Source of the DNA: Acidobacteriota bacterium
GTDB taxonomy: Bacteria; Acidobacteriota; UBA890; WLXD01
DNA: 64,000 nucleotides
Reading direction: 5' to 3'
NCBI GenBank assembly: GCA_963666215.2
Contig: CAXWPL010000004.1
Coordinates: 64,001-128,000 of the forward strand
Shown here: one piece after another, positions 7,121 to 59,446 of the stretch
Layout: each line of letters opens with the position of its first letter
How positions within the stretch are numbered: the first letter of the stretch is position 1
Program-made: the position numbers and the translations under genes
The notes under the pieces: generated by a model
Told to the model about the DNA's origin: nothing
The model's database searches: none
The model's input: the letters and a program-made list of their open reading frames with translations, nothing else

Positions 7121-7180
7121 GGCGGACCGCCGAAGTCGGGCCGGCACGTCGACTCTCGAGCTGCACAGCGTTGGCGATGG

Positions 7181-43722: not shown

Positions 43723-45396
43723 CTAGAGAATCGGGACCTCGTCGTAGGTTCCCCAGACGTTGCGCAACGCGCCGCAGATGTCACCGACCGTGCAATCGGC
43801 CTCGACGGCGTTGATGATCGGGTAGACCGTGTTGTCGCCTCCTCGTGCCGCCGCCTCGACGTGAGAAAGCGCCTCGGACACACGCGCGGCGTCGCGGCGC
43901 GCCTTGAGATCTTTGATTCGGGCCACGATGCGCTCCTGGCCCGCCGGATCGACCTCGAACACCGGGATCTCGACCTTCTCGGACGACACGAACCGGTTGA
44001 CGCCGACGACCACGCGCTCCTCGCTCTCCACTTGCATCTGGTAGCGATAGGCCTGGTCGGTCAGCGCGCGCTGAAACCAGCCGCTCTCGATGCATCCGAG
44101 CGCTCCGCCACGCGTTTCGATCTCGTCGATGCACTGCCAGACGCGGCGCTCGATCTCGTCGGTGAGATGCTCGACCGTCCATGAGCCACCGAGCCCGTCG
44201 ATCACATCGGTAACGCCGGTCTCGTGTGCGATGATCTGCTGCGTGCGCAATGCGAGGGTCGCCGCGTCCTCGGTGGGAGTGGCGAAGGCCTCGTCGAAGG
44301 CCGTGGTGTGCAGCGTGTTGACGCCACCCAGCGCCGCCGCGAGCCCCATCAGCGCCACCCTCACGATGTTGTTCAGCGGCTGTTGCGCCACCAGGCGACC
44401 ACCGAGGGTGAACCCGAAGATCTTCAGGGCCATCGCCTGCGGATCTTCGGCGCCGTAGCGCTCCCGCATGAGCTTGGCCCACACGCGGCGCGCGGCGCGG
44501 AACTTCGCCACCTCCTCGAGAATCTGGATGTCGCTGGCGAGGAACGACCAGATGTTGGGCGCGAAGGTGTTGATGTCCACCCCACGCCGCACGGCCTCGT
44601 CGAAGTAGGCGATGGCGTTGGCGAAAGCGAAGGCGAGCTCCTGAACGGCCGTCGAGCCACTGTCGCGGATATGGTACCCGCTGATGGCCAGCGGCGTCCA
44701 GCTCGCCAGGCCTTCGCGGGCGCAGTACTCGATGACGTCGACGCTGTGTCGCAAGGATGGGGCCGGCGGGTAAATCTGCGTACCGCGGGCGATGTACTCC
44801 TTGAGCACGTCGTTCTGGATGAACAGCTTGATGTCGCGCGGATCCACTTCCTGCTTCTTGGCCATCGCTACGACCATGGCGGCGAACACGGGACCCATCG
44901 CGTTGGCTGTGGTTCGGATCTGCCGCACCTTGTCGAAGGGAATACCGGCGAAGAGGCTCACCATGTCTTCGAGCGACGCCAGGCTGACGCCCACCTTGCC
45001 CACCTCACCCTGGCTGATGGACGCATCGGGGTCGTAGCCGTTCTGCGTCGGCAGGTCGAGAGCCACCGAGAACCCCGTCTGCCCCTGGGCGAGGAGATGC
45101 CGGAAGCGCGCGTTGGTGTCGTCCGCCGACCCAAATCCGGAATACTGGCCGAAGATCCAGAGGTCCTGGCGGTACATGGCGGGATAGACGCCGCGCGTGA
45201 AGGGGTAGGCGCCGGGGAAACCCACCTTCTCGTCGCGATCCACCGCTTCGTCGAGCGCGTCGTGGAGCCGCTCCAGCGGTATGTCGCTGGCAGTGGCGAA
45301 GGCCTCCTTGCGTTCTCCTCGGCCCTCGAGGGCCGGGGCAAGAACCTCCTGCTCCCAGTCGGCTCTCGCCTCCTTCTGGCGTTTCCGATCGCTCAT
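43723..45396 (-). CDS. Acyl-CoA mutase large subunit (methylmalonyl-CoA mutase family) without a B12-binding domain
   Basis: [60 protein letters not shown]. Confidence 0.92.
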
Positions 45397-45453
45397 CGGG
45401 CTACGACCTCCCCTCGACACTCGACGACGTTAACGCCGCGACCAGCATGCCAC

Positions 45454-47013
45454 TCAAACCTGCCGCTCGCGATCCCGCCAGTGAGGCTCGCGCAACTTCT
45501 TCTTGAGAATCTTGCCCGCCGGGCTCTTGGGAAGCTCGTCCACGAGCTCAACCGCCCTCGGCAGCTTGTAGCTCGCGAGGAGTCCGCGGCAGTGCTCGGT
45601 GAGCTCCTTCGGGCTCGCCGCCCGGTCGGGCTTGAACGCCACGACTGCCGTGACCCTCTCCCCCCATTCGCGGTCGGGCACTCCGATGACGGCGCACTCC
45701 GCCACTGCCGGGTGTCGGTACAACACCTCCTCGACCTCCCGTGGATAAACGTTGTAGCCGCCCGAGATGATCATGTCCTTCTTGCGGTCGACAATGAAGA
45801 GGTAACCCCCGGCATCGATCGTCGCCAGGTCGCCGGTCGAGAACCAGCCGTCTCGTAGCACCTCCGCGGTGGCTTCCGGCTGGTTCCAGTAACTGGCCAT
45901 CACGTGATCGCCGCGGATGAGCACCTCGCCGATCTCGCCGGCAGCAACCTCGTCGCCGGTCTCGTTGACCACCCTGACGTCGACGCCGATACAGGGACGG
46001 CCAGCGCTGGCCAACCGCCCCATTTGTTCGGGCGTCCCGTCCACCACATGGTCTTCTTTGGCCAGCGCCGTCGCCGGCTGCGGGGCCTCGCTGAGGCCGT
46101 ACACCTGGACGAAGACCGGCCCGAACGTCTCGATCGCTTCGCGCAGCCGCTCCGCCGGCATGGGCGCGCCCGCATAAACGATCGTGCGGAGGCTCGAAAG
46201 GTCGTACTGGGATCGATCGGGAAAGTCCAGGAGCCTGCCAATCAGCGTCGGCACCAGCCAGGTGGTGGTCACCCGGTGACGCTCGATGGCCTCGCAGTAG
46301 CTAGCCATGCTGAACTCGGGCAAAAAGACGTTGGTAGCGCCCTTGACGTAGTGGGTGAACACCTTGGTGCCGCTGCCGTGGGCCAGCGACGCAACGTGGA
46401 GCATGACGTCGGTCGAGTGGACGAAGTCCTCGTTGGCATACACCGTGAACGTCGAGACCCATCGCGACCGCACCGTCGTCATCGCGCCCTTGGGCCGGCC
46501 GGTGGTGCCCGAGGTGTACAGAATCATGTAGGGGTCTTCCATCTCGGTGGCGACGTGGGAGGGCTCGGGATCACCTGCCGCGACGATCTCGTTCCAGCCG
46601 AGGAACCCGGCGGGCGCGTCGTCGACGGCAACGAGATGGCGGACCGGCGTGGCCTGCGAGCGAATGCGCTCGATTACCTCGGCGAACTCGCCACCGTAAA
46701 TCAGCGCCGCCATTCCCGAGTCCTCGACGATGTAGGCGATCTCGGGGGGCGCCAGCCGCGGGTTGATCGGCACGCGCACCAGCCCGGCCTTGATCAGCGC
46801 CCAATCGGCGATGGTGAACTCGGGTCGATTCGGCAGGATGATGCCAACACGGTCGCCCTTGGCCAGCCCGAGGTCACCCGACAACACTTGTGCCAGGCGA
46901 TTCGACTCCGCCTCGATCTCGGCGAACGTCGCCTCGCGTCTACCCCAGATGATCGCCGTTTTCGCCGCGTGGTTGCGGCCGGCTCGCGACAGCAGGTCGG
47001 CGAGACGGTTCAT
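45454..47013 (-). CDS. AMP-forming acyl-CoA synthetase
   Basis: YTSGTTGRPKG, YGLSE, TGD, PKSPAGKILK. Confidence 0.92.
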   Translation of the reverse strand: MNRLADLLSRAGRNHAAKTAIIWGRREATFAEIEAESNRLAQVLSGDLGLAKGDRVGIILPNRPEFTIADWALIKAGLVRVPINPRLAPPEIAYIVEDSGMAALIYGGEFAEVIERIRSQATPVRHLVAVDDAPAGFLGWNEIVAAGDPEPSHVATEMEDPYMILYTSGTTGRPKGAMTTVRSRWVSTFTVYANEDFVHSTDVMLHVASLAHGSGTKVFTHYVKGATNVFLPEFSMASYCEAIERHRVTTTWLVPTLIGRLLDFPDRSQYDLSSLRTIVYAGAPMPAERLREAIETFGPVFVQVYGLSEAPQPATALAKEDHVVDGTPEQMGRLASAGRPCIGVDVRVVNETGDEVAAGEIGEVLIRGDHVMASYWNQPEATAEVLRDGWFSTGDLATIDAGGYLFIVDRKKDMIISGGYNVYPREVEEVLYRHPAVAECAVIGVPDREWGERVTAVVAFKPDRAASPKELTEHCRGLLASYKLPRAVELVDELPKSPAGKILKKKLREPHWRDRERQV

Positions 47014-47035
47014 GAGATCGGCTCTCCGCGCTCGG

Positions 47036-47854
47036 CTAGCACATGAAGCGGCCACCGTTGGCGTCGATGACCGTTCCGGTGATGTAGCGGGACCCTGGTC
47101 CCGCGAGAAAGACGACCACCTCGGCCTGCTCCTCGGCGCTCGACAGCCGCCCGAGAGGGATCGTGCTCAAGGTCTCCTGCTGCTGCGCCGGCGTCAGCTC
47201 GTTCCATAGATCGGTCATTCTCTCGCCGCTGAGAACCGTCCCGGGCGCGGTCGCATTGACGTTGATGTTCCACTCACCGGTCTCCTTTGCCAGGCGGCGA
47301 GTCAGGCCAATCAGCCCGGCCTTGGCGGCGGCGTAGGGCACGCCCGTGACGATGCTGGCCGTGCGGCCACCGATCGACGAGATGTTGATGATCCGCCCAC
47401 CGCCGAGCTCGCGCATGACGGGCACTACCGCCTGACAGAAGAGGAACGCCCCCTTCAGGTTGACGTCGAGGACGAGATCCCAGTGGCTCTCCTCGATCTC
47501 GTCGAGGTTCTTAGGGGTGTACAGACTGCCCCCGGCGTTGTTCACCAGGATGTCGACGCGCCCCAGCCGCTCGCGCACCTGCGACACCGTTTCACGTACT
47601 TGCGGGGGCTCGCGCACGTCGCAGGAGATGCCCACAAAACGCCTTTGCGGCACCGCCGCCGCGAGCTCCACCGCAGCCGCATCGAGGCCTTCCCGATCGA
47701 CATCGACGATCGCCACGTCGGCACCGGCCTGAGCCATCGCCCTCGCGAATGCGCGCCCCAGGCCGCCGGCACCGCCCGTCACGATGGCCACCTTGCCGCC
47801 CAGGGTCGCTGCCGTTCCGCCCTTGTTGGAATCCGAAACAACCGGTTCGTTCAT
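47036..47854 (-). CDS. SDR oxidoreductase (FabG-like)
   Basis: TGGAGGLG, NNAG, NISS, YAAAK. Confidence 0.92.
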   Translation of the reverse strand: MNEPVVSDSNKGGTAATLGGKVAIVTGGAGGLGRAFARAMAQAGADVAIVDVDREGLDAAAVELAAAVPQRRFVGISCDVREPPQVRETVSQVRERLGRVDILVNNAGGSLYTPKNLDEIEESHWDLVLDVNLKGAFLFCQAVVPVMRELGGGRIINISSIGGRTASIVTGVPYAAAKAGLIGLTRRLAKETGEWNINVNATAPGTVLSGERMTDLWNELTPAQQQETLSTIPLGRLSSAEEQAEVVVFLAGPGSRYITGTVIDANGGRFMC

Positions 47855-49959
47855 GGCGAAGCCCTTCCCGTCAACAGAGCGTCTACGACCCGCGCCCCTT
47901 CGCCCGCCCCGAGCACCACGACTGGGTTGAGGTCGAGCTCCCACTCGCCCGCAGCGGAAGCCGCGAGCTCAGACACGCTCACGATCAGTGAAACCAGGGC
48001 ATCGAGATCCGCGGGGCCGCGGCCCCGCACGCCGCGCAGCAGCGCCATTGATCGCAGCTCAGACACCATGGCCTCGGCCTCCTGCCGATCGACCGGCACC
48101 AAGCGCATCGCGGTATCTCGAAGCACCTCGACGAGAACGCCGCCGGCACCCACGGTGATCATCGGCCCAAACTCCGAGGGGACAACTCCAATGAGCATCT
48201 CGACGCCGCCCGACACCTGCTCTTGCACCAGCACCCCGCTGATGCGAGCGCCGGGCACGAGCGCGCGGACCGACGCCACCACATCGCCATAAGCCGTGGC
48301 CACGTCGTCGGGGCCATGCAGGTCGAGAGTAACGCCGCCCACCTCGGTCTTGTGCAGGATGTCCGGAGACTCGATCTTGAGCGCCACCGGGTAGCCGATG
48401 TCGGCGGCCAGCGCCACGGCGGCTTCGGCCGACTCAGCCAGTCCTTCTCTCGTCACCGGTAGGCCGTGTTGCCCCAGAATCTCCTTTGCGACTCGCTCGC
48501 TGAGCGACTCCCCCGGCGCCGGGAATCCGGCCGGCGGCTCGCCGGCAGCCGCAGTGTGCTCGCCGGTTCCTGAACCGTCGCGCACCCGCTGGAAGTGAAC
48601 GAGTGCAGCGATCGCCCGTACCGCCTGCACCGAGGTCTCGAAAACCGGGATGCCGGCCGCGAGCAGGCTCGGCCGTGCCTCGGGAGCTAGCGAGTCGGCG
48701 CCGGTCTTGGAGAACAGCACCGGCTTGTCGGTTTCGGCGGCGGTCTGCAGCACATCCTCCACAACACGCAGCGCCGAGTCTCCCGTGAGCACACAAACGG
48801 AGCACAGCAACAGGTCGACTCCCGGGTCAGCCGCCATCAAACCGATGCAGCGGCGAAACAGCTCGCGGTCGGCGATGACCTGGGCGGTCACATCCACCGG
48901 GTTGAGGACGGAGCCGAACCAGGGAACGATCTCCTGCAGTTGCGCCCGCGTGTCGTCACCGAGTACGGCGACCTCGAGTCCGAAGTCGGCGCACGCGTCG
49001 GCTGCCATGACACCGGCGCCTCCCGAGGTCGTCAGGATGCCGACCCGGTTGCCCTTCGGCCGGCGTGGCTGCCGCAGCGTCGCCGCAACATCGAGCAGAT
49101 GGTCGACGTCGTCGACACGGACGATGCCCAGCTGTCGACAGACCGCGGAGAGAACCTCGTCGTCGCCGGCAAGGGCCGCGGTATGCGATGCCGCCGCGCG
49201 ACTTCCCACCTCGGAGCGACCAACCTTGAGCATGACGATAGGCTTGTCGCGCTGCAGCGCCAGTCGCGCCAGCGCGGGCCACTCGTCTGCCTTCTGCAAG
49301 CCCTCGCTGTACACCAGCACAACACGGGTGACGTCGTCGAGCAGCAGGTCACGAACCGCTTCGAGCGAGCTGAACGCCGCCTCGTTGCCGGTGTTGAGGA
49401 CGCGGCTGAATCGCAGGCCGCGATCCAGTGCCAGGCTGACGATCCCGTACCCGAGGGCGCCAGACTGCGACACCAGACCGATCTCGCCGGGCCGCCATTC
49501 GGCCTTCGCGAACAGCGGGCTGAAGCCGGCGACAAGGTTGAAGTGCGGGTTGACGAGACCAATGCAGTTGGGCCCGATGAGCCGTAGCCCCCCGGCCTCG
49601 GCCAGGCCGATCAGCTCGCGCTGACGGCGCTCGCCCTCGGCGCCCGACTCGGCGAATCCGGAGGCGAGCACCACAGCAAACCCGACGTTCTTCGCGGCGC
49701 ACTCTTCGATGACCCCTGGCACGTGGTCGGCACCGACCATGACCAGAGCCAGATCGACCGGTCCGGGACAATCGGCCACCGACGGATAGCAGCGATAGCC
49801 CAGCACCTCCTCGGCCCGCGGATTGACGGGGAGAATGTCGCCGCCATAGCCGTTGTCACGCAGGTAGCGCACCGGCGCCTGACCCATCGAGCCGGCGCGG
49901 CCCGACGCGCCGATCACCGCCACACCGCGAGGCTCCCAGAGACGTCGCAGACCGCTCAC
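47851..49959 (-). CDS. ADP-forming acyl-CoA synthetase (acetate-CoA ligase family, fused)
   Basis: VAVIGAS, GPNCIG, SQSGA, ASHTAAL, HKTEVGGV, LDLNP. Confidence 0.9.
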   Translation of the reverse strand: MSGLRRLWEPRGVAVIGASGRAGSMGQAPVRYLRDNGYGGDILPVNPRAEEVLGYRCYPSVADCPGPVDLALVMVGADHVPGVIEECAAKNVGFAVVLASGFAESGAEGERRQRELIGLAEAGGLRLIGPNCIGLVNPHFNLVAGFSPLFAKAEWRPGEIGLVSQSGALGYGIVSLALDRGLRFSRVLNTGNEAAFSSLEAVRDLLLDDVTRVVLVYSEGLQKADEWPALARLALQRDKPIVMLKVGRSEVGSRAAASHTAALAGDDEVLSAVCRQLGIVRVDDVDHLLDVAATLRQPRRPKGNRVGILTTSGGAGVMAADACADFGLEVAVLGDDTRAQLQEIVPWFGSVLNPVDVTAQVIADRELFRRCIGLMAADPGVDLLLCSVCVLTGDSALRVVEDVLQTAAETDKPVLFSKTGADSLAPEARPSLLAAGIPVFETSVQAVRAIAALVHFQRVRDGSGTGEHTAAAGEPPAGFPAPGESLSERVAKEILGQHGLPVTREGLAESAEAAVALAADIGYPVALKIESPDILHKTEVGGVTLDLHGPDDVATAYGDVVASVRALVPGARISGVLVQEQVSGGVEMLIGVVPSEFGPMITVGAGGVLVEVLRDTAMRLVPVDRQEAEAMVSELRSMALLRGVRGRGPADLDALVSLIVSVSELAASAAGEWELDLNPVVVLGAGEGARVVDALLTGRASP

Positions 49960-50495
49960 CCGGAGATTTCCGGCGCTTGGGGCGCTTCAGGCCCCGTGCG
50001 AGCCGCGTCGTCGTTGCCGTCAGCCGCCGCCCGCGCCTCGGGCCCCGCCCCAGGAGCAGCGTCGTCGTTCGTGTGCGCCGCGGCCGGCGCCTGAGGACTG
50101 AACTTGAACCCATAACGCACGACACCTTCTTCGTCGTACAGACGACGCACCTGCGCTCTGACTGGCGTGCCTATGGTCGGCTCTCCGATGCCGTCCGTCA
50201 GCTGAGCCGTGATCTTGGGTCCCTCCGCCAGCTCGACAATCGCAACGTGGTAGCCGCCCTGACGGCGGGCCTGCTCGGCGAATTCCGGAGGCGCCCCGGC
50301 GGGAGTGATGCGCGTCACTGCCAGGATCTCCCCACGCCCGGAAAGCACCATGGCCTGCAGCACGCCGCCGCAATCCCGGCAGCCGCCAACAGGGGGAAAG
50401 AAGACCCTCTCGCAGCCTGTGCAACGCCGGCCCTCGAGGCAGAGGCGCTGCGACAGGCTGCGTCGATACATGGGAACGGAGACATGGGCGCCCAC
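49956..50495 (-). CDS. DUF35 Zn-ribbon/OB-fold protein
   Basis: CTGC..FFPP..CRDC, IVELAEG.KITAQLTD, YGFKF. Confidence 0.9.
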   Translation of the reverse strand: MGAHVSVPMYRRSLSQRLCLEGRRCTGCERVFFPPVGGCRDCGGVLQAMVLSGRGEILAVTRITPAGAPPEFAEQARRQGGYHVAIVELAEGPKITAQLTDGIGEPTIGTPVRAQVRRLYDEEGVVRYGFKFSPQAPAAAHTNDDAAPGAGPEARAAADGNDDAARTGPEAPQAPEISG

Positions 50496-50497
50496 GA

Positions 50498-51502
50498 TCA
50501 GATCTCTCCGCGGAGCTTCAAGTAGGTCAGGTAGTCAACATCGGTGGCCGCGGCGAGGGAGCGCGCCAGCACCCCCTGACCCGACTCCGGGCCGGCGACC
50601 AGGCTAATCGCGTCGGCCGCCGAACCACTGCCGTGGCCGAGCAGGAGGATCCGATCCCCGGGATGGGCGGCATCGAGAGCCGCAACCAACTCCAGGAGCG
50701 GCTGCGCGGCGCCGACGTTGGCGGTTTCGGGGAAGGCACGCGCCGGCCGCCACTGGTCGTCCCGCAGCTCGAGGGCGCGAGCCGCTGCACTCGCGAGTCG
50801 GGGATGCGGAGCGTTCATCGCCACGAAGCGGTACTCGGCAAGCTCGCGGCCCAACACCCGCAGCAGCCCGGCGGTCGCCCCACCCATAGCGGCCGTATAG
50901 GCATCCGCGGCGTAGTCCGGCACCTGCACATCGCGCCGGCGCTCGTCGTCTGCCCGGGTGAAATCGAGCCCGGGATCCTCGGCCACGAAACTGGAGACCG
51001 CCTCGACGGAGGCGACGGCACCGTTCTCTTGAAGCACGAATGCCGCGGCGCCCGCTCCCATGAGCGCGTCGCTGCCGGCACGCGCCGATCCGCTAGCGAC
51101 CTCCGAGGCCACGACCAGGGCCACGCCGCCCGCGGCGTGTTGGGGCGCCGGCGAGCCCGCCACCGCGAGCGCCGAGATGAAGGCCTCGGTGCCCGCGCGG
51201 TCGGAAGTCGTGCACTCGACGGTGAACGGGCTGCTGCCAAGGCGGAGCGCGTGCGCCAGCAGCCCCGCCTGGACCTTGTGACGATAGGGAAGGCTGGTGG
51301 AAGCCAGTGCCAGGACGTGCACTGGCGGAGCGGCAATGTCTGCCGCCGACGCCACTGCGAGGGTGAGCGCATCCTCGTCGAGCCCAGCCACGCGCTTGCC
51401 CTTCAATCCGGGAATCGCGGGCCCCCAGGCGCGAGACAGCTCCTCGGCAGAAAGTCGGTGAACCGGGAAGCGACAACCGTAGGCCGCGATGCCGAGAACC
51501 AT
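50498..51502 (-). CDS. HMG-CoA synthase-like protein, probably non-catalytic (PhlA-like)
   Basis: GIAAYG, DEDALTLAV, GAGAAAF, GDRILL..GSGSAADA, YL.YLK.RG; catalytic Cys position reads SDRAG. Confidence 0.8.
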   Translation of the reverse strand: MVLGIAAYGCRFPVHRLSAEELSRAWGPAIPGLKGKRVAGLDEDALTLAVASAADIAAPPVHVLALASTSLPYRHKVQAGLLAHALRLGSSPFTVECTTSDRAGTEAFISALAVAGSPAPQHAAGGVALVVASEVASGSARAGSDALMGAGAAAFVLQENGAVASVEAVSSFVAEDPGLDFTRADDERRRDVQVPDYAADAYTAAMGGATAGLLRVLGRELAEYRFVAMNAPHPRLASAAARALELRDDQWRPARAFPETANVGAAQPLLELVAALDAAHPGDRILLLGHGSGSAADAISLVAGPESGQGVLARSLAAATDVDYLTYLKLRGEI

Positions 51503-52726
51503 CTATGCGCCTCCGAGCCGCGAGGAAGACTGAAACACGTGCACCGTCGCCGACGCCCCGCTGCCTCCCATGTTGTAGGCGAGGCCGGTCCGGGCGCCTT
51601 CTACCTGACGGTCCGCCAGACTTGCCGTCCCCCGCAACTGATCGAACATCTCCACCGCCTGTCCGATGCCGGTCGCGCCGATGGGGTGCCCCTTGGCCTT
51701 GAGGCCGCCCGAGGTGTTGACCGGCAGCCGTCCACCCAGATCGAACTCACCGGCGGCCAGCCGTCGACCGGCCTCCCGGATATCGCACAACCCGAGCTCG
51801 TGGTAGGCAACGAGCTCGGCCACGGTGAAGCAGTCGTGCACTTCGATGAGGTCCAGGTCGCCGGGGCTCAGCTCGGCCATCGCCAGCGCTTGTTTTGCCG
51901 CCCGGCCCGCGGCCTCGAGCCGCGTTATGTCGTCGCGGCCGTGAAGCGCCAGGGTGTCGCTGGCCGCCCCCCATCCGGTAATCCACACCGGATGGTCGGA
52001 GAAGCGCGACGCCAGCTCGGCGCTGACGACGAGCACACACGCCGCGCCGTCGGTCGTCGGGCAACAATCGAAACCGGTTAATGGAGCTGCCACCATCGGG
52101 GCGCCGAGAACCTGCTCCAGGGTCAGCGGCCGGCGCAGCATGGCATGGGGATTCAGCGATGCGTGGCGGTGGTTCTTCACGGCCACTCGCGCCATGTCCT
52201 CGCGGGTGATCGCTCCGATGTGAATCAGCCGCGCCGCCATCAACCCGAAGATCCCGGCAAAGGTGAGCCCCGCCAGACGCTCGTACTCGGTGTCACCCGA
52301 GATGCCCAGCCAGTAGCGGCCCTTCTCGCCGGAGACATCGCGCATCTTCTCGACCCCGGCCGCCAGCACGCAGGAGTACTGCCCCGAAGCCACCGCCTGC
52401 ACGGCCTGCAGCAGGGCGTAGCCACCGGACGCGCAGGCGCTCTCGACATGCAACGCCGGAACCGGCGGTAGCCCGGCGTAGTCCAGCAGCGCCGGCGCGA
52501 AGTTACCGAGCTGCATGCCCTGGCCGCACGCCAGGCTGCCGATGAACGCAGCTTCGATACGGTCGCGCTCCAACCCGCGGTCCACCGTGCCAACCATGTC
52601 GTCGAGGGCGGCTTGAAACAGCTCCTTGACGCCGAGATCGGGGTGCTTACCGAAGGCCGTTTGCCCTGCCCCGACGAGCGCAACGCGCAATGCCCCAGCC
52701 CCTTCCGACGATCCGGTGGATTTCAA
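51503..52726 (-). CDS. Thiolase (archaeal/SCP2-type)
   Basis: ESACASG, GVEKM, DGAAC, EVHDCF, KGHPIGATG, NMGG. Confidence 0.9.
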   Translation of the reverse strand: MKSTGSSEGAGALRVALVGAGQTAFGKHPDLGVKELFQAALDDMVGTVDRGLERDRIEAAFIGSLACGQGMQLGNFAPALLDYAGLPPVPALHVESACASGGYALLQAVQAVASGQYSCVLAAGVEKMRDVSGEKGRYWLGISGDTEYERLAGLTFAGIFGLMAARLIHIGAITREDMARVAVKNHRHASLNPHAMLRRPLTLEQVLGAPMVAAPLTGFDCCPTTDGAACVLVVSAELASRFSDHPVWITGWGAASDTLALHGRDDITRLEAAGRAAKQALAMAELSPGDLDLIEVHDCFTVAELVAYHELGLCDIREAGRRLAAGEFDLGGRLPVNTSGGLKAKGHPIGATGIGQAVEMFDQLRGTASLADRQVEGARTGLAYNMGGSGASATVHVFQSSSRLGGA

Positions 52727-53002
52727 CGAGTTCTACTAACCAGTCAACTTATGAAGGCGACGACGGTCGCGAACTCTGCGGTTCGAGACGCTCTACAACA
52801 AGCAGGCCGGGATAGTAAGTGGCTTGATCGTAATGACTTGGGGGAGTCTTTCCAAGCTTCGCAACTGCTTTCTGGACCTCCGCGCCCAGAAGTTGGATAC
52901 TTACCCGCGAGTTGATCCATTGGCAACATCCAGTTTCCGCCCCTCACCCCTGCCGACTCGAACCGCTTCGAGTCGGCAGGGACAGCCGGACAGGCCAACA
53001 AC

Positions 53003-53122
53003 ATGACCCCCTTGCCCCACTGGATTTTCCTGTTCGGGACCATGATCGTTTACTTCATCATTGGGTTCGTCGTCTACGCCTTCTACGGTCGTGCAGGCCG
53101 CGGCTCTGGAGGCGACCGATGA
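53003..53122 (+). CDS. 39-aa single-TM symporter accessory protein
   Basis: MTPLPHWIFLFGTMIVYFIIGFVVYAFYGRAGRGSGGDR; ATGA overlap with the symporter start. Confidence 0.7.
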   Translation: MTPLPHWIFLFGTMIVYFIIGFVVYAFYGRAGRGSGGDR

Positions 53123-54612
53123 ACCCCATGCTAGTCGCCTTCGGCCTGTACCTGGCGGCGATCGTTGCAATCGCCGTCTGGCACATGCGGAGCATCCAGT
53201 CGTCCTCCGACTTCTTCCTCGGTGGGCGGGGAATCGGCCCCATCGGCACGGCCATCAGCGCCGCGGCATCTGCCCGCAGTTCCTCTGCCATGGTGGGCCA
53301 GGCCGGTCTGGCGTTCATGGTGGGCTTCCAGGCCGTGTGGATCGTTTTCGCGGCGACGATTCTCGAGTATCTGGCGATGCTCTACCTGCTCGGGCCAAAG
53401 CTGCGACGGTTCTCGAGTCGGCGTGGAGCCATCACCATCCCCGAGTATCTCGAAGAACGGTTCCGCGACAGCAACAACCTGTTGCGCTTGCTGTCGGCGT
53501 TGGCGCTGATCGTATTCATGATGGCGTACATCGCGGCCCAGTACGTGGGCATGAGCTTCGTGGTGTCACAGGTGTTCGACTGGCCGCTGGTGCCCGCCAT
53601 CATTGTCGCCGCGATCATCACCGCCGCCTACACCATGTTCGGAGGCTACAAGGCCGTCGTCTACACCGATGTGATGCAGGGCTGCATGATGGTCCTGGCG
53701 CTCGCCGTTGTGCCTTTCTTGGCCTGGCGCGCCGCCGGCGGCCTCGAGAACGTCGTGTCCGAGCTCAACGTGATTGGTGGCCCCGGTCTCTCGGGCATCA
53801 TCGGAAGCAACGGCTGGCCCTTCGCCATCGGGATGCTCTTCGCCGGTCTCGGTGCTTTCGGCAACCCCCATATCGTCGTGCGCTACATGAGCATCAGGTC
53901 GGTGCGCGACTTCCGACTCGCAGCACTGGTGAATCTGATCTTCAACATCATCATCGGCTGGGGTGGCATCATCCTGGGGCTCGCCGGCAGGGTGCTGTAT
54001 CGCGACGTCACGAGCCTACCTTTCGAGAATCAGGAGATGGTCTTCTTCAGTATCAGTCGCGACATGATCCCGTCGGCTTTCCTGCTGGGGGTGATCTGGG
54101 CCGGCGTCTTCGCCGCCATGATGTCCTCGGCAGACTCCATGATCATGGTCGTCACGTCCTCAGTGAGCCGCGACATCTATAAGAAGATCCTGAAGGCCGG
54201 CGTGGAGATCAAAGAGAGCACCGAGTTGACTATCGATCGCGTCACCGTGGCGCTGGTCGTGCTCGTCTGCCTGTTCCTCACCTTCTTCCTCGAGAAATCC
54301 GCCCTGGCCATCGCGTTGTTCGCCTGGGGCGGCCTGGGAGGCGCCCTGGGCCCGGTGATCCTGCTCTCGCTCTGGTGGCCACGGATGACCAAGTGGGGTG
54401 CGGTGGCCGGCCTGGTGGGTGGCATCGGCATGGCGGTGTTCTGGCGATTCACGCCGGCGCTCACCGCCATCGTCAGCTACGAGGCTCTGCCGGCGTTCCT
54501 GTTCGCCACCGCCGCCGCTTGGCTCACCAGCCTGGCCACCGAGCCGCCAGACGATCCAACGCTCGAAGAAGACCTGGCGTTCCCCGATTGGGACGACATG
54601 GAGCTGCGCTAG
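53119..54612 (+). CDS. Sodium:solute symporter (PutP-like)
   Basis: DFFLGGR, ITIPEYLEERF, YT..GG.KAV.YTD..QG, GNPHI..RYM, AAMMSSADS. Confidence 0.92.
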   Translation: MNPMLVAFGLYLAAIVAIAVWHMRSIQSSSDFFLGGRGIGPIGTAISAAASARSSSAMVGQAGLAFMVGFQAVWIVFAATILEYLAMLYLLGPKLRRFSSRRGAITIPEYLEERFRDSNNLLRLLSALALIVFMMAYIAAQYVGMSFVVSQVFDWPLVPAIIVAAIITAAYTMFGGYKAVVYTDVMQGCMMVLALAVVPFLAWRAAGGLENVVSELNVIGGPGLSGIIGSNGWPFAIGMLFAGLGAFGNPHIVVRYMSIRSVRDFRLAALVNLIFNIIIGWGGIILGLAGRVLYRDVTSLPFENQEMVFFSISRDMIPSAFLLGVIWAGVFAAMMSSADSMIMVVTSSVSRDIYKKILKAGVEIKESTELTIDRVTVALVVLVCLFLTFFLEKSALAIALFAWGGLGGALGPVILLSLWWPRMTKWGAVAGLVGGIGMAVFWRFTPALTAIVSYEALPAFLFATAAAWLTSLATEPPDDPTLEEDLAFPDWDDMELR

Positions 54613-54649
54613 TGTTCACGGCAGCAGCCGGGCACGCCGCGGCAAACAG

Positions 54650-55657
54650 ATGACGTACGGCGAGATCTGGGAGCGCGGCATGGCTCGCCTCGAGGAGATG
54701 GGGCGGGCTAACGACCTCGACCTGGCGTGCGAGACCAGGTCGTCCACCTCTCTCAATCGCAAGTACCTCGACTCGATAGCGATCGAGATGCGGTTGCTGA
54801 AGGCCGTCGTCGCCGACACCACGACGCAGCTCTTTGGCACACAGCTGCAGTCGCCGGTAATCGGCGCCCCGTTGGGCTTCGGCCGCGTTTTAGGACAGCT
54901 CGCCGAGCACGGTCCCCAGTACGGCACGGGCTACCTCGAGCCCATCGCCGCCGGGCTGGCCGACGCCGGCTCCATGATGGGCGTCGGCGTGGCGCCTGCC
55001 GAGCAGTTGCAAAGCGTGCTCGACGTCGGAGCCCCAACCTACGTCATCGTCAAGCCGTACCGGGAGCGCGAGCGGATCCTCAGCAAGATCCGCGACGCCG
55101 AGGCGCGCGGTGTGGTCGCCGTGGGCATCGATATCGACGCTGGCTACGGCGTTCGCACTCGTTACGAACCGGTGGGAGAGACGTACAACGCCCCGCTCAG
55201 CCCCGCGGAGCTGGCCGAGGTTCGCGCCAGCACCAAGCTCCCCTTCATCCTCAAGGGAATCCTGTCGGTCAGCGACGCCAGGGCCGCCGTCGACGCCGGG
55301 GTCGACACCATCGTCGTCTGCAACCACGGCGGCGAGATCATCGACTACGCCGTGCCTCCTCTCAAGGTGCTGCCCGACATCGTCGAGGCGCTGGCGGACT
55401 CGAAGATCACGATCCTGGTGGGCTCGGGACTGCAGACGGGCACCGACGTCCTCAAGGCTCTGGCACTCGGCGCCGACGCCGTCATGCTGGGGACTCCGCT
55501 CATCGTCGGCCTGGCGGCCGCTGGCGCCGACGGGGTTGCGGCGCTGGTGCGGGGCCTGAGCGACGAGCTTCGGCGCAATCTGTCGATCGTGGGCGCGGCG
55601 ACTCCGAGCGACGTCGACCGCTCCATCCTCCATTTCCCCTTCCTCGGCGGCTCGTGA
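54650..55657 (+). CDS. FMN-dependent alpha-hydroxy acid oxidase-like protein
   Basis: LPFILKGILS..DA, CNHGG, DVLKALALGADAV. Confidence 0.85.
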   Translation: MTYGEIWERGMARLEEMGRANDLDLACETRSSTSLNRKYLDSIAIEMRLLKAVVADTTTQLFGTQLQSPVIGAPLGFGRVLGQLAEHGPQYGTGYLEPIAAGLADAGSMMGVGVAPAEQLQSVLDVGAPTYVIVKPYRERERILSKIRDAEARGVVAVGIDIDAGYGVRTRYEPVGETYNAPLSPAELAEVRASTKLPFILKGILSVSDARAAVDAGVDTIVVCNHGGEIIDYAVPPLKVLPDIVEALADSKITILVGSGLQTGTDVLKALALGADAVMLGTPLIVGLAAAGADGVAALVRGLSDELRRNLSIVGAATPSDVDRSILHFPFLGGS

Positions 55658-55691
55658 TGCGGCGGCCCGGGCAACACGCCGCGGGTTCGTC

Positions 55692-57056
55692 GTGCTGACA
55701 CCTCGCGTGCTGCAGGCGCTGGCAGACTCGTGGCCAAATTCCCGCGAGGGCTACGACCGTGCGTCGCGAGTCATCCCGTCGGGCACGGTGAGCCGCGCCC
55801 GCATTCTGGACCCGTTCCCGTTCCTCACCGCGCGGGCCGCTGGTGCACGTGTTGTCGACGTGGACGGCAACGAGTACATCGACTGCGCGATGGGGTTCGG
55901 CTGCCACCTGCTCGGCCACGCGCATCCCGTGGTGGTCGAGGCAATCCGCGAATCGGTGCTCGAGGGCACCGGCTACGGCACCCCCCATCCGCGCGAGGCC
56001 CGTCTCGCGGAGCTCCTGGTAGACAGCATTGCGTGCGCCGACAAGGTGACCTTCGCTAACTCGGGATCTGAGGCCACGCTCAATGCCATCCGAATCGCCA
56101 GAGGTTTCACCGGCAAGTCGGGCATTGCCAAGTTCGAGGGTGGGTACCACGGTTGGTACGACGCGGTGCTCGGCAGCGTGTACCACGACCCGGCGGCCAG
56201 CGGCGCCATCGACGAGCCGGCGTTCTTCTCGCACTCCATCGGCGTCCCCGCCGAAAACCTGGCTCACACGTACGCCCTTCCGTTCAACCATGAGGCTGCC
56301 TTCGAGCGCATCCGTAGCCTCTCGGACAAGCTCGCGGTGGTTCTGGTGGAGGCCGTTCAGGGAGCTGGCGGAGCCATCCCAGCGGATCGCGCATGGCTGC
56401 ACGGGTTGCGCAGAGTTTGTAGCGAGTGCGGCGTCCTGCTGCTCATCGACGAGGTCATTACCGGCTATCGCCTGGCGCGTGGCGGCGCCCAGGAAACCTA
56501 TGGCGTCGAGGCAGACTTGGCGACCTACAGCAAGGTGGTGGGCGCCGGGTTGCCGATTGGCATCATCGCCGGCACCGAATCGGTCATGGGAATGCTCGGG
56601 ACCACCGGAGACCCGGCTCGCGATCTACGCGACAAGGTCTACTACGGCGGCACCTTCAACGGCTCCGTGCCCGTCATGGCGGTGGGAATCGCGGTCCTCG
56701 AGTACCTGGAGGAGCACCCGGAGGTGTATGGGCGACTCAACGATCTCGGGGCAACCCTACGCCAGGGCCTCACCGAGATGATCGCGGCTGGCGGCTATCC
56801 AGCCACCGTTCTCGGAACCGGCTCGATGTTCATGCTCCGGTTCATAGAACATCCGGTGCATAGCTGCAGGGACCTGAGCGGCGAGAACGGCGGCGCCTAT
56901 CGCGAGCTTTTCCCGCGGCTGCTGCAGCAGGGTGTGTTCATGGCGCGGACACATTTCGGGCTGCTCTCCACCGCCCACACGGACGACGACGTGAGCCGCA
57001 TCGTCGAGGCACATGCCGCCGCGCTAGCTGGCATGCGGAAGGACGGAGTGCTCTAA
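55692..57056 (+). CDS. Class III PLP aminotransferase (glutamate-1-semialdehyde aminomutase-like)
   Basis: DVDGNEYID, NSGSEA, FEGGYHG, DEVITGYR, SKVVGAGLPIG, GTFNG. Confidence 0.88.
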   Translation: MLTPRVLQALADSWPNSREGYDRASRVIPSGTVSRARILDPFPFLTARAAGARVVDVDGNEYIDCAMGFGCHLLGHAHPVVVEAIRESVLEGTGYGTPHPREARLAELLVDSIACADKVTFANSGSEATLNAIRIARGFTGKSGIAKFEGGYHGWYDAVLGSVYHDPAASGAIDEPAFFSHSIGVPAENLAHTYALPFNHEAAFERIRSLSDKLAVVLVEAVQGAGGAIPADRAWLHGLRRVCSECGVLLLIDEVITGYRLARGGAQETYGVEADLATYSKVVGAGLPIGIIAGTESVMGMLGTTGDPARDLRDKVYYGGTFNGSVPVMAVGIAVLEYLEEHPEVYGRLNDLGATLRQGLTEMIAAGGYPATVLGTGSMFMLRFIEHPVHSCRDLSGENGGAYRELFPRLLQQGVFMARTHFGLLSTAHTDDDVSRIVEAHAAALAGMRKDGVL

Positions 57057-57168: not shown

Positions 57169-58614
57169 ATGGCGAGGTGCTGGCAGTTTTATACGCTCAC
57201 GCTGGTTGCAGCGATGGCAATCAGCGGGTCGCCTCCCCTGGCCGCGGGCGCCCAAACCTCGGCGACCGCGCTCCTCTATCGCGACGGCCACAAGGAAGCG
57301 GCGAGCGCCCGACGTGCCGCGATGATGACGGCCATGGAGGGCGGGCTGGCGGTCATCACCAGCGCCGATCGCAGCCAGCCGAACCTCTACGAGTACTACC
57401 CCGACGATACGGAGAGCCACGACTTCATCTTCTTGACTGGCATGTACGATCCGGCGCCCCCGGGATCGATCCTCGTGCTCAACCCCGACGGAAGCACCTA
57501 TCGCGAGGTCCTGTACACCGCCGATGATCTCGAAGAGGCGAGGCGCGTCACCGGAATCGAGCACATCTTCCAACACGAGAAGTTCCTCGAGCACTTCTCC
57601 AGCGCCCTCACCGACTATCGTAACCTGCGCATCACGCAGCTGCGCTTCAAGCCGGTCGCCTCGGACCTGGCCCGCGGCTGGGGCAACTCCGACAAGATCC
57701 TCTACGTCAACTACCCCCGCTTCAACAACCTGAGCGAGCCCGCGAATCCCCGGCTCGAGTTCGTCGACCGCCTGAGGGAGGCCACGCCGGAGCTCGACCT
57801 GCGTGACGCTGGCGACATCCTGGACCGGATGCGGATGGTGCTCGACGATTTCGGCCAGATTCAGGTGCGGCGCGCCATCGAGATCACCGGTAGGGGGCTG
57901 ATGGAGGGCATGAAGCTGGCTCGCCCGAGCCTCAGCACGAAACAGGTGATGGAGGCGGTCAACCACGTCTACCGCCTCAACGGGGCCCGCCTCGGGTTCA
58001 ATACCGGTGTTTCGCCGGCCAGCAATCTGAACGTCGAGCTGCGATGGGAGAACACCCGCGACGAGGAGGCGGCGCGAAAGGGCGACGCCCCGATCTTGCC
58101 GGGCAGCCTGGTGCATTTCGACACCGGAGCCGCGTTCAATCACTACTCGGCCGACATTCAGCGGACGGTCCCAGCCGACGGCACCTTCACGGACGAGCAG
58201 CGTCACGTGTATCAGACGGTTCTCGACGTGCAGAAGACTGTGATCTCGAACGTACGTCCCGGAGTCACCTGGCAGGAGCTCCACGACATGGCGGTGACGA
58301 TGCTGCGCGACGCCGGGGGCTGGGACGAGAGCTACACGTACGGGATCGGCCACTTCATCGGCATGGAGGTGCACGAGCACGGCGACTACACGATTCCACT
58401 GGAGCCGGGCATGGTCCTCGCAATCGAGCAGGGCGTCATCGTCGACGGCACGCGTGTGGCCTTCGAGGACGACGTGCTGGTAACCGGGGATGGCCACGAG
58501 TGGCTGAGCCGCTTCATCCCAATCGAGATCGACGAGGTCGAGGCGTTGCGACGGGAGGCACCGGCTAGCGACCCGAGCCAGCTCCTCCTCCCGCTGCCGA
58601 AGCGGCAGCGGTGA
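57169..58614 (+). CDS. Exported Xaa-Pro aminopeptidase (M24)
   Basis: Signal peptide; DTG..YSADIQRT, GHFIGMEVHE, IEQG, FEDD. Confidence 0.88.
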   Translation: MARCWQFYTLTLVAAMAISGSPPLAAGAQTSATALLYRDGHKEAASARRAAMMTAMEGGLAVITSADRSQPNLYEYYPDDTESHDFIFLTGMYDPAPPGSILVLNPDGSTYREVLYTADDLEEARRVTGIEHIFQHEKFLEHFSSALTDYRNLRITQLRFKPVASDLARGWGNSDKILYVNYPRFNNLSEPANPRLEFVDRLREATPELDLRDAGDILDRMRMVLDDFGQIQVRRAIEITGRGLMEGMKLARPSLSTKQVMEAVNHVYRLNGARLGFNTGVSPASNLNVELRWENTRDEEAARKGDAPILPGSLVHFDTGAAFNHYSADIQRTVPADGTFTDEQRHVYQTVLDVQKTVISNVRPGVTWQELHDMAVTMLRDAGGWDESYTYGIGHFIGMEVHEHGDYTIPLEPGMVLAIEQGVIVDGTRVAFEDDVLVTGDGHEWLSRFIPIEIDEVEALRREAPASDPSQLLLPLPKRQR

Positions 58615-58624
58615 TTGGCGGCAA

Positions 58625-59446
58625 ATGAGCGTCGACCCGGAAACACCGTCCGGCGGATCGTCGGCGGCGGGTGTGGGTCAACGCCTCGAGATCGTGGCAG
58701 TCCCCGGTATTCCGGAGGTGCGGCCCGGTGACGATCTCGTGGAGCAGATACTCGCCGCTCTCGAGGGGGCCCGGCTCGAGCTCCGTGACCACGACATCGT
58801 CGTTGTGGCTCAGAAGATCGTCTCGAAGGCTGAGCAGCGAGTGGTGGATCTCGCCTCCGTGCGTCCGGGGCGGATGGCTCGCGAGTGGGCAGAACGGCAC
58901 GGCAAAGACGCCCGCCAGGTACAGGTGGTGCTCGACGAGTCGGTGCGCATCGTCCGCATGGATCGCGGCGTCATGATCTGTGAGACCCGCCACGGGTTCA
59001 TCTGTGCGAATGCCGGGGTCGACGCCTCCAACGCCCCGCCGGGGTGTGTCCTGCTATTGCCAAGCGATCCCGATGCGTCGGCGCGCCAGTTGCGCGTCGG
59101 CCTCCAAGGTGCCACGGGGGCCCGCATCGGCGTCATCGTCACCGACACCTGGGGACGTCCATGGCGGCTCGGAATCACCAACGTCGCCATCGGCGCCAGC
59201 GGCGTGCCGGTGCTGCGCGACCATCGGGGCGAGCAGGATCCCGCAGGACGACCGATCCGCGTGACCGTGGTGGCGGTGGCAGACGAGTTGGCAGCCGCGG
59301 CCGAGCTGGTCATGGGCAAGGTCTCGCGGATTCCGGCGGTGATCGTCCGAGGTCTCGAGAGCGGACGGCTCGACGAGGGGCCCAACGCGAGCGGCTGCGG
59401 CGCCGGCAGTTTGGTTCGCCCCACCGAAGACGATCTCTTTCGCTAG
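58625..59446 (+). CDS. cofE: Coenzyme F420-0:L-glutamate ligase
   Basis: PEVRPGDDL, QKIVSKAE, ANAGVDASN, TDTWGRPWR.G, ADELAAAA. Confidence 0.9.
   Translation: MSVDPETPSGGSSAAGVGQRLEIVAVPGIPEVRPGDDLVEQILAALEGARLELRDHDIVVVAQKIVSKAEQRVVDLASVRPGRMAREWAERHGKDARQVQVVLDESVRIVRMDRGVMICETRHGFICANAGVDASNAPPGCVLLLPSDPDASARQLRVGLQGATGARIGVIVTDTWGRPWRLGITNVAIGASGVPVLRDHRGEQDPAGRPIRVTVVAVADELAAAAELVMGKVSRIPAVIVRGLESGRLDEGPNASGCGAGSLVRPTEDDLFR

Follow-up and report, generated by a model that had tools for sequence, protein, structure and literature searches.

An unassigned clade of acyl-CoA mutases and its proposed catabolic operon in an Acidobacteriota bacterium

To our knowledge, only a handful of acyl-coenzyme A (acyl-CoA) mutase specificities are known, namely those for methylmalonyl-, isobutyryl-, ethylmalonyl-, 2-hydroxyisobutyryl-, pivalyl-, and aryl/alkyl-succinyl-CoA, and each of them opened up a pathway as well as a new means of engineering carbon skeletons. 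Here we describe a seven-gene operon, ending in the gene for an acyl-CoA mutase large subunit, that lies within 64,000 nucleotides of an Acidobacteriota bacterium (lineage UBA890; WLXD01; assembly GCA_963666215.2, contig CAXWPL010000004.1, positions 64,001 to 128,000 of the forward strand). This whole stretch, with a G+C content of ~66%, is called the window below, and coordinates are positions in it unless a contig is named. With a probability of roughly 0.55, we read the operon as a CoA-dependent catabolic module built around a mutase of an unassigned clade, and the divergent block of genes on its right as a separate unit that may be linked to it.

The described systems closest to the mutase are of three kinds. 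Methylmalonyl-CoA mutase (MCM; P. shermanii 1REQ, human 2XIJ) shares with it the PF01642 barrel, the carboxylate-holding Tyr and Arg, the Gln, the Tyr-His pair, and the DEA motif, but the two are only ~38% identical and the equivalents of R87/R108, S164, T195, H328, and Q330 are replaced; most genomes that harbour the clade carry an ordinary MCM as well, and the clade's neighbours are ligases rather than a carboxylase and an epimerase. The 2-hydroxyisobutyryl-CoA mutase (HCM) system of Aquincola tertiaricarbonis and Methylibium petroleiphilum PM1, which consists of HcmAB, the HCL ligase, MeaH, and a dehydrogenase, is alike in its split mutase with a large subunit of ~560 aa and, at the annotated Methylibium locus, in the operon logic of AMP-forming ligase, mutase, and dehydrogenase, whereas the operon described here lacks the B12 subunit and MeaB and adds an ADP-forming synthetase and a trio of thiolase, DUF35 protein, and a protein resembling 3-hydroxy-3-methylglutaryl-CoA synthase (HMGS). 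The third kind comprises the phenylsuccinyl-CoA (benzylmalonyl-CoA) mutase IaaGH and the ethylmalonyl-CoA and alkylsuccinyl-CoA mutases, compared here by substrate and gene content, whose bulky carboxylated acyl-CoAs would fit a pocket that combines Tyr and Arg with an enlarged hydrophobic remainder. In the iaa cluster for anaerobic indoleacetate degradation, a mutase is accompanied by a ligase and a family III CoA-transferase (PMC8360864); a decarboxylating acyl-CoA dehydrogenase, hydantoinase-like genes, and an enoyl-CoA hydratase are all absent from the operon described here.

For the trio, the counterparts are the archaeal thiolase/HMGS/DUF35 complex, PhlACB, and BbsAB, with which it shares a make-up of three neighbouring genes drawn from these families. 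Its thiolase is closest to the archaeal enzyme (257 bits), and the HMGS-like protein, as in PhlA, has no nucleophilic Cys; it is, however, only ~25% identical to either the archaeal HMG-CoA synthase (HMGCS) or PhlA, and has lost Glu, Cys, and His altogether. The surroundings also differ, being an operon of CoA ligases and a mutase rather than mevalonate or phloroglucinol genes.

The mutase and its clade

The mutase matches PF01642 over profile positions 2-512 of 512 (E 5.4e-179) and TIGR00641 with 577.6 bits (cut-off 303.8), and falls below the MCM equivalog NF006944 (489.4 bits against a cut-off of 876). Its best solved relative is HcmA (4R3U, 508.6 bits), with MCMs at ~346 bits. In alignments it keeps Y93, Q202, R212, and Y249-H250, the equivalents of Tyr89, Gln197, Arg207, and Tyr243-His244 of MCM. 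Two residues before Tyr93, however, it has G91, where the sampled MCM, isobutyryl-CoA mutase (ICM), and HCM types have Arg. In human MCM, according to PMC11988910, Tyr110, His265, and Arg228 contact the substrate, and Arg108 lines the catalytic cavity beside His350; the equivalents of Arg108 and His350 in the window mutase are Gly91 and Phe335.

These features recur in homologues. G91, Y93, A120, and R212 are present in all 121 rows of an alignment of the query with the best 120 of 7990 proteins found at E <= 1e-100. The 182 distinct mutases in fetched loci were sorted by a five-residue motif, which reads RYAQR in 135 of them, RFAQQ in 25, GYAQR in 20, and RIDQQ and EYAQR in one each; RIDQQ is that of Methylibium HcmA, and the EYAQR variant comes, as does locus L063, from an unpublished genome (G303). 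A tree of 149 sequences (FastTree, LG+gamma), built from a random subset of 57 RYAQR rows and cleared of sequences that contained stops or fell short of 470 aa, unites 65 rows of the window mutase's type and the EYAQR row in a single clade with a support of 1.0, here called the GQY clade, apart from the 57 RYAQR-type sequences, while HcmA groups with the ICM type and not with this clade.

At twelve positions, the GQY clade has a residue with a conservation of 90% or more that differs from one with a conservation of 85% or more in the MCM type; among these changes are R to G91, S to R169, T to F200, and H to F335; the replacement of Q by F337 and that of HTN by HTT were read from consensus lines. 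In the clade consensus, WTMRQ(Y/F/I)AGF becomes WIFGQYSGF, S(T)SMTIN becomes IRTTAN, which is one residue longer, GT.QND becomes LFIQND, FAPRLSFFF becomes FAPNIWSFL, LRFH.QT becomes LKIFGFT, and SLHTN becomes TLHTT. The window mutase departs from the motifs that are invariant in the sampled MCM, ICM, and HCM types (W-T-M-R-Q-x-A-G-F, S-M-T-I-N, G-T-x-Q-N-D, R-F-H-x-Q-T, and H-T-N), and it has all clade-conserved residues in an intact frame. Judged from these replacements, the predicted pocket is one in which the Tyr and Arg that hold a carboxylate or carbonyl are kept, the surroundings are larger and more hydrophobic, and a new Arg is present at 169. The clade thus appears best filed as an unassigned subfamily of acyl-CoA mutases in a new module, a placement made against the MCM, ICM, and HCM types. 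Of ~425 plasmid records, the 30 best and a further 45 spread over the remainder were listed, and none of these was annotated as ethylmalonyl-CoA mutase; the best plasmid match, from Brevibacillus, proved to be an ordinary MCM with an epimerase and a carboxyltransferase.

The conserved module, its genes, and its cobalamin partner

Homologues of the window's genes were counted within 6 kb of the mutase wherever its locus had 2 kb or more of flanking sequence, 46 further loci being too short. A homologue of the AMP-forming ligase lies near the mutase at 14 of the 18 GQY-type loci, as opposed to 2/99 of the MCM type and 0/18 of the ICM type, and the ligases that adjoin clade mutases are 38-63% identical to that of the window. 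The corresponding figures are 8/18, 0/99, and 0/18 for the ADP-forming synthetase, and 6/18, 6/99, and 0/18 for the short-chain dehydrogenase/reductase (SDR). Gene orders are listed in Table 1. The context closest to that of the window is a metagenomic locus, L140, whose SDR, ligase, mutase, and synthetase are 54-63% identical to those described here and whose thiolase is 34% identical. SDR homologues (55-61% identity) directly precede the ligase in L140, L141, and L061, and thiolases recur near the clade mutase, often together with DUF35, which stands beside the mutase in L279 and L221 and forms a fusion with an HMGS-like domain in L061. In L060, L061, L220, and L221, the ligase is replaced or accompanied by family III CoA-transferases; in three of these four loci the best model for the transferase is succinyl-CoA:mesaconate or succinate-glutarate CoA-transferase, in every case below the cut-off. 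Since gene order is conserved in other organisms, the arrangement is not due to chance, and a ligase-mutase-thiolase module is conserved across several phyla and apparently undescribed.

The closest homologues of the window mutase are 70-73% identical, one of them from Symbiobacteriaceae, and homologues of 60-73% in metagenomes and metagenome-assembled genomes (MAGs) also bear the names Burkholderiaceae, Anaerolineae, Armatimonadetes, and Acidobacteria. Source names for the clade as a whole cover Chloroflexota, Bacillota, Actinomycetota (including abundant freshwater actinobacteria), Pseudomonadota, Armatimonadota, and the window's own phylum; one freshwater actinobacterial family has it in 8 of 41 genomes. 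Across 300 other genomes of the window's phylum, identity to the mutase peaked at 53%; this set, in the tallies for both the mutase and the flavin mononucleotide (FMN) enzyme discussed below, includes three further unpublished genomes. The ten genomes of the same family yielded only MCM-level matches or none. Because of this patchy distribution, the left operon was probably acquired horizontally. The HMGS-like protein may accompany the module at least once elsewhere: a homologue of it (P0125, 51% identity) and a mutase homologue (P0005, 70%) come from the same source and both have a longest contig of 25063 bases.

Some neighbours of the module in other genomes deserve mention in their own right. 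In streamlined freshwater actinobacterial genomes, tryptophan 2,3-dioxygenase is encoded near the module in L250 (G320:C1:70700-90600) and L252, and kynureninase, MeaB, and a B12 small subunit also flank it in L250, while other members have PaaX and a thioesterase instead; these freshwater contexts hint at a link with the breakdown of tryptophan or aromatic acids. In L279, a complete glycine-cleavage operon with lipoate ligase and dihydrolipoyl dehydrogenase follows the module after 365 bp on the same strand. DUF3870, found before the ligase in L061 and L279, was not mentioned in the literature retrieved by our search.

In the window, the gaps from the thiolase gene (52726) down to the end of the mutase gene (43723) on the minus strand measure 0, 2, -4, -4, 22, and 57 nt, and the seven genes are taken as an operon because of this spacing. 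The start codons of mutase, ligase, and SDR were refined; the SDR start overlaps the stop of the gene upstream, and the mutase open reading frame (ORF) is open upstream to a GTG at 45420. No Rfam family reached its gathering score anywhere in the window, and thus no cobalamin riboswitch was found, nor did a simple scan give a promoter-like match within the divergent region. The first-pass annotation of this DNA had named eleven genes in two divergent, tightly packed operons, three of them with non-canonical active sites; Pfam and NCBIfam searches and the ORF map recover all eleven in the same place and order, the map and the gaps agree with the two operons, and alignments confirm the unusual sites of the HMGS-like protein, the FMN enzyme, and the mutase. 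It had also proposed conservation of the cluster as a check, which the co-occurrence of the left-operon core with the mutase elsewhere bears out, and had recognised no described pathway with this gene set; literature searches likewise turned up none.

Table 1. Features of the window around the two operons, followed by gene orders at loci of other genomes that encode a mutase of the GQY clade
Feature	Position	Strand	Evidence or gene order
Acyl-CoA mutase large subunit (TIM-barrel), 557 aa, ATG 45396	43723-45396	-	PF01642
AMP-forming acyl-CoA ligase, 519 aa, ATG 47013	45454-47013	-	PF00501 + PF13193
Classical SDR, 272 aa, ATG 47854	47036-47854	-	PF13561 + PF00106
ADP-forming (NDP-forming) acyl-CoA synthetase, fused alpha + beta, 702 aa	47851-49959	-	PF13380, PF13607, PF19045, PF13549
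DUF35 protein (zinc ribbon + OB fold)	49956-50495	-	PF12172 + PF01796
HMG-CoA-synthase-like protein	50498-51502	-	NF003274 163 bits, below cut-off 244
Thiolase, archaeal/SCP2 type	51503-52726	-	PF22691 + PF00108
Divergent intergenic region	52727-53002	.	276 bp, separates the two operons
39-aa single-helix membrane protein	53003-53122	+	ORF; stop overlaps symporter start
Sodium:solute symporter (SSF), PutP-like	53119-54612	+	PF00474; TIGR02121 313 bits, below cut-off 515
FMN_dh-family protein, 335 aa	54650-55657	+	PF01070 E 3.2e-65
Class III (glutamate-1-semialdehyde aminomutase-like) aminotransferase	55692-57056	+	PF00202
M24 metallopeptidase-family protein (Xaa-Pro aminopeptidase/creatinase fold)	57169-58614	+	PF00557
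CofE-like gamma-glutamyl ligase	58625-59446	+	PF01996; TIGR01916 289.9 bits, above cut-off 180.65
L140 (metagenome)			thiolase(-), MarR, SDR, ligase, mutase, B12 small subunit, ADP-forming synthetase
L141 (metagenome)			SDR, ligase, mutase
L061 (Alkalihalobacillus MAG)			SDR, DUF3870, ligase, mutase, HMGS-like::DUF35 fusion, then contig end
L279 (low-G+C Bacillota)	G507:C1:1981000-2000900		M20 amidohydrolase, DUF3870, ligase, mutase, DUF35, thiolase
L221 (window's phylum)			PrpD-like, mutase, B12 subunit, DUF35, thiolase; beside acyl-CoA dehydrogenase, family III CoA-transferase, class III aminotransferase
L220 (window's phylum)			CoA-transferase, mutase, thiolase
L060 (Anaerolineales)			2-oxoacid dehydrogenase E1-beta/E2, mutase, thiolase, CoA-transferase, thiolase
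L250-L253, L105 (one freshwater actinobacterial family)			thiolase(-), SDR, RidA, ADP-forming synthetase, ligase, mutase
L254 (same family), begins at synthetase			synthetase, ligase, mutase, PaaX(-), thioesterase
L063 (G303)			hydantoinase, ligase, mutase, thiolase, aminotransferase like glutamate-1-semialdehyde aminomutase

The thiolase scores 417.4 bits against NF004720 (cut-off 420); its closest solved structures are the archaeal acetoacetyl-CoA thiolases 7YVY (257 bits) and 6ESQ chain A (256 bits), with BbsB 7PXP at 168 bits. Both thiolase domains are present, and the nucleophilic Cys, in 'ESACASGG', aligns with that of 7YVY. DUF35 proteins are the usual partners of SCP2/archaeal-type thiolases, and the DUF35 gene lies two genes downstream. 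Between the two stands the gene for the HMGS-like protein, whose closest solved chains are the archaeal HMGCS 6ESQ chain I and PhlA-like chains (71 bits each), and which has Thr, Asp, and Asn at the positions of the catalytic Glu, Cys, and His (D101 against Cys114 of 6ESQ chain I). Five relatives have lost these residues too, while a canonical HMGS (P0129) in the alignment retains all three. With the triad gone and NF003274 below its cut-off, the HMGS-like protein does not qualify as an HMG-CoA synthase, and is a dead enzyme, most likely a scaffold, like PhlA. Just 8 proteins match it at E <= 1e-20 in a collection of 5.8 billion, a scan of genome contigs with it found no relative, and the best match among the genomes of 60 relatives is 32% identical; being too divergent, the protein is unsuitable as an anchor.

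The remaining enzymes belong to broad families. The ADP-forming synthetase has as its nearest NCBIfam models acetate--CoA ligase (ADP-forming) at 479 bits and 4-hydroxybutyrate--CoA ligase at 443 bits, and lies below the cut-offs of both. The SDR belongs to the FabG-type subfamily NF009466 (226 bits, cut-off 222), and the AMP-forming ligase scores 502.6 bits against NF004837 (cut-off 476), its closest solved relatives being the fatty-acyl/feruloyl-CoA synthetases 8WEU/8WEV, along with anthranilate-, o-succinylbenzoate-, and malonyl-CoA ligases.

The question of a cobalamin partner for the mutase has to be considered for the whole genome, which is 91.7% complete. No PF02310 B12-binding domain was found in the operon or elsewhere in the window, and the mutase itself has none. 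The genome holds six PF02310 matches, among which the only free-standing small subunit is that at C2:517640-518029, and three acyl-CoA mutase large subunits, namely the GQY-type protein, an ICM-type protein on contig 2, and a fused MCM-type protein (RYAQR) on contig 1; its one MeaB gene lies elsewhere on contig 2. When the small subunit of L140 was used as a query, it matched just the contig-2 small subunit (58% identity) and MetH. An adjacent small subunit is found at 3 of the 18 GQY loci (L140, L221, and L250) versus 17 of the 18 ICM-type loci; L250 has MeaB as well, and in its genome MeaB and the small subunit lie 1.6-2.4 kb from the mutase. As 15 of the 18 clade loci have no adjacent small subunit, in-trans partners seem usual, and the clade would be of the B12 type, commonly with a partner encoded elsewhere. 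In the present genome, the partner must be borrowed or be encoded in unassembled DNA; otherwise the mutase step is dead. The idea that the clade works without B12, raised by a small actinobacterial genome with no PF02310 match (G304), was rejected, since five related genomes all have B12-binding proteins and one genome, G320, has the small subunit and MeaB close to the mutase of L250.

The right-hand block and the rest of the window

The FMN enzyme of the right block has a longer ORF, from 54398, that overlaps the symporter gene, the true start being at 54650. It matches the family of alpha-hydroxy-acid oxidases (PF01070), but reads 'NHGGEII' where L-lactate oxidase 7F20 has 'NHGARQL', so that it lacks the Arg of the NHGxRQ motif, which binds the carboxylate and stands at the third position past the catalytic His; in a protein atlas it falls only into generic 'alpha-hydroxy acid oxidase family' clusters. 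The aminotransferase has the class III fold and a Schiff-base Lys in 'YSKVVGAGLP'. It scores below the cut-offs of NF000818 (365.1 bits against 398) and of hemL TIGR00713 (353 bits against 527.3), and is thus not assigned to HemL; its best solved relative is glutamate-1-semialdehyde aminomutase (GSAM) 2E7U, with beta-transaminases at 180-185 bits. Ectoine degradation was considered for the block and dropped, the M24 protein scoring 19.7 bits against a DoeA cut-off of 575. The CofE-like protein scores above the equivalog cut-off for F420-0:gamma-glutamyl ligases (TIGR01916).

Orthologues of the FMN enzyme were found in two of the 300 other genomes of the phylum, G003 (78% identity; same family, another genus) and G234 (69%), and 45 clusters at 63-86% identity are present among 120 listed metagenome homologues. 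In G003 (L262, G003:C2:1938500-1958400), the order is small membrane protein (62%), symporter (83%), an extra acyl-CoA dehydrogenase, FMN enzyme, aminotransferase (73%), M24 protein (78%), CofE-like protein (67%), and an FG-GAP protein. Upstream of it are genes for a TPR protein, AtuA-family proteins, a carboxyltransferase, a cyclase, and an HpcH-type aldolase, and no mutase operon; this set may represent another way of handling a branched acyl-CoA, or be unrelated. In G234, the FMN enzyme adjoins an M24 protein that is 64% identical to that of the window. Because G003 keeps the block without the left operon, the right block is regarded as an older, vertically inherited operon for the uptake and conversion of an amino compound, beside which the left operon was added.

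On the other side, the mutase gene is followed by 273 bp and then by an unrelated PadR/ADOP pair, the ADOP-family permease just left of the region, of a kind linked to the Acidobacteriota, scoring 852.8 bits against TIGR03434. The rest of the window encodes a FadBA-type beta-oxidation set, succinate dehydrogenase, and a formate-dehydrogenase-like gene, none of them obviously connected to the operons. The last of these is a molybdopterin oxidoreductase (3626-7147, minus strand) that appears as two ORFs because of one in-frame TGA; with this codon translated as selenocysteine, the protein runs '...SNQARTUHSSTVPGLG...'. The gene is adjoined by those for FdhD (7181-8053), a 4Fe-4S subunit, and an NrfD-like subunit, and it probably encodes a selenocysteine-containing enzyme of the formate dehydrogenase type.

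Proposed pathway, alternatives, and significance

In the proposed catabolic pathway, the AMP-forming ligase would activate an organic acid to its CoA thioester, as its family and conserved adjacency suggest, a task that would fall to the family III CoA-transferase in some relatives. The mutase, whose residues are observed and whose reaction is predicted from them, would move the thioester group to the neighbouring carbon by means of adenosylcobalamin held by a small subunit encoded elsewhere. Where needed, the SDR would then oxidise a hydroxyl to a 3-oxo group, the archaeal/SCP2-type thiolase, held by DUF35 and the dead HMGS-like scaffold, would cleave the 3-oxoacyl-CoA, and the ADP-forming synthetase would recover ATP from one of the product thioesters. 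The retained Tyr and Arg suggest that a carboxylate or carbonyl lies next to the migrating centre, and the greater size and hydrophobicity of the remaining pocket would leave room for an additional substituent, which is therefore expected. The substrate would most likely be an analogue of succinyl-CoA, R-CH2-CH2-CO-SCoA, in which R is either a carboxyl group with a further substituent or an acyl group, with substituted succinyl- or malonyl-CoAs, hydroxy-dicarboxylyl-CoAs, and 4-oxoacyl-CoAs as candidates.

A more specific version, distinctly unlikely as it stands, holds that the mutase converts a 4-oxoacyl-CoA, R-CO-CH2-CH2-CO-SCoA, or its 4-hydroxy form, into a 2-methyl-3-oxoacyl-CoA that is cleaved directly by the DUF35-bound SCP2-type thiolase, 2-methyl-3-oxoacyl-CoAs being classic substrates of such thiolases; in the 4-hydroxy variant the SDR would act after the mutase. 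This would explain why Tyr and Arg are kept while the surrounding pocket turns hydrophobic, how minimal operons of ligase, mutase, DUF35, and thiolase can do without a redox enzyme (L279; L221), and why aminotransferases and RidA recur. A literature search aimed at a 4-oxoacyl-CoA rearrangement found no such reaction.

Several points weigh against the catabolic module as we read it. Each of its chemical steps is an inference, no clade member having a known enzyme activity, and, as the tree covers the MCM, ICM, and HCM types, the clade might coincide with IaaGH or ethylmalonyl-CoA mutase. The operon encodes no B12-binding subunit, MeaB, or adenosyltransferase, and the free-standing small subunit of the genome adjoins the ICM-type (RFAQQ) mutase (contig 2, 515978-518029; L007, L268); the window mutase could be inactive or could rely on a borrowed partner. 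The oxidation step is not universal, as the minimal operons L279 and L221 have no SDR. Seven of the 18 GQY loci are from one actinobacterial family and are non-independent, and several were fetched as clade members. The direction may also be another one, since thiolase/DUF35/HMGS complexes are biosynthetic in archaea and in PhlACB.

The concerns about the partner of the mutase and about the direction correspond to alternatives in their own right. If the small subunit was lost after transfer, the mutase would be orphaned and its rearrangement would no longer work in this organism; in L140 a small subunit directly follows the mutase, which is the last gene in the window, and the L140 query detected no remnant in the genome. 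The intact frame, the full set of clade-conserved residues, and a G+C content at third codon positions (GC3) of 0.86, like that of neighbouring genes, nevertheless make such a loss improbable, as do the many clade loci that also have no adjacent small subunit and the availability in the genome of the ICM-type subunit that resembles that of L140. In a biosynthetic direction, the thiolase complex would condense acyl-CoAs, the SDR would reduce, and the mutase would make a branched or substituted malonyl- or succinyl-CoA for a metabolite. Archaea employ such trios for condensation, an inactive HMGS-like subunit is part of PhlACB-type complexes, as the matched solved chains show (see also PMC12960953, PMC6392133, and 10.1101/2024.07.05.601840), and PMC8360864 mentions substituted malonyl-CoAs arising by B12 rearrangement; yet the operon has two CoA ligases, one of the ATP-yielding ADP-forming type, no polyketide synthase, nonribosomal peptide synthetase, or tailoring genes were found in the window, and relatives adjoin transporters, amidohydrolases, beta-oxidation genes, and the catabolic-type regulators PaaX, IclR, and MarR, all of which render a biosynthetic role quite improbable. 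Very improbable, too, is a 2-hydroxyisobutyrate-type route as in Aquincola and Methylibium, leading through ligase, HCM, 3-hydroxybutyryl-CoA dehydrogenase, and acetoacetyl-CoA thiolase to acetate and ATP. It would agree with HcmA as the best solved relative (508.6 bits versus 346 for MCM), with the similar logic of the Methylibium hcm cluster (B12 subunit, AMP-forming ligase, MeaB, mutase, and 3-hydroxybutyryl-CoA dehydrogenase), and with the affinities of the thiolase to acetoacetyl-CoA thiolases and of the ADP-forming enzyme to acetate--CoA ligase models. Presumably, however, HCM specificity resides in Ile90, Asp117 (which would bind the substrate hydroxyl), and Gln208 of HcmA, whose counterparts are Tyr93, Ala120, and Arg212; the motif of Methylibium HcmA is RIDQQ against GYAQR in the window, and HcmA falls with the ICM type, outside the GQY clade.

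The first-pass annotation had joined both operons into one B12-dependent pathway for an amine or amino acid, running from uptake through transamination or oxidation, CoA activation, B12 rearrangement, oxidation, and thiolysis to ATP. The operons are divergent and share the control region between them, a GSAM-like class III aminotransferase lies ~8 kb from the clade mutase in L063, another class III aminotransferase stands beside the L221 operon, RidA is found inside the operon in L250, L251, L252, L253, and L105, that is, in five of the six loci of that family, an M20 amidohydrolase heads the L279 operon, and the acyl-CoA dehydrogenase between symporter and FMN enzyme in G003 brings the right block into touch with CoA chemistry. 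Against such a fusion, the sister-genus genome G003 has the whole right block (62-83% identity, same order) and neither the left operon nor, anywhere in the genome, a GQY-type mutase; in G234 the FMN enzyme with its M24 neighbour and the GQY-type mutase are on different contigs; homologues of the symporter, FMN enzyme, and aminotransferase occur within 6 kb of the mutase at none of the 18 clade loci; and, by base count, none of the 120 listed FMN-enzyme homologues is on a contig shared with the closest mutase homologues. A single pathway is therefore unlikely and that claim was not borne out, although the aminotransferases near the L063 and L221 mutases and the recurrent RidA leave a looser amine link possible. 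The term B12-dependent, for its part, is backed by the mutase family and by the small subunits beside relatives, and stands as a prediction, the operon having no B12 subunit.

The catabolic module around the GQY-clade mutase thus stays the preferred reading. The clade is a well-defined further group of mutases with a rebuilt pocket, recurring in modules that combine a ligase or CoA-transferase with a thiolase, and the seven genes form a directly testable set. Should the 4-oxoacyl version be true, it would amount to a B12 route for gamma-oxo, gamma-hydroxy, or, via the GSAM-like aminotransferase, gamma-amino acids, unlike the known levulinate pathway. The substrate of the clade, once found, would add a reaction to B12 enzymology and would also explain the B12 requirement in these bacteria.

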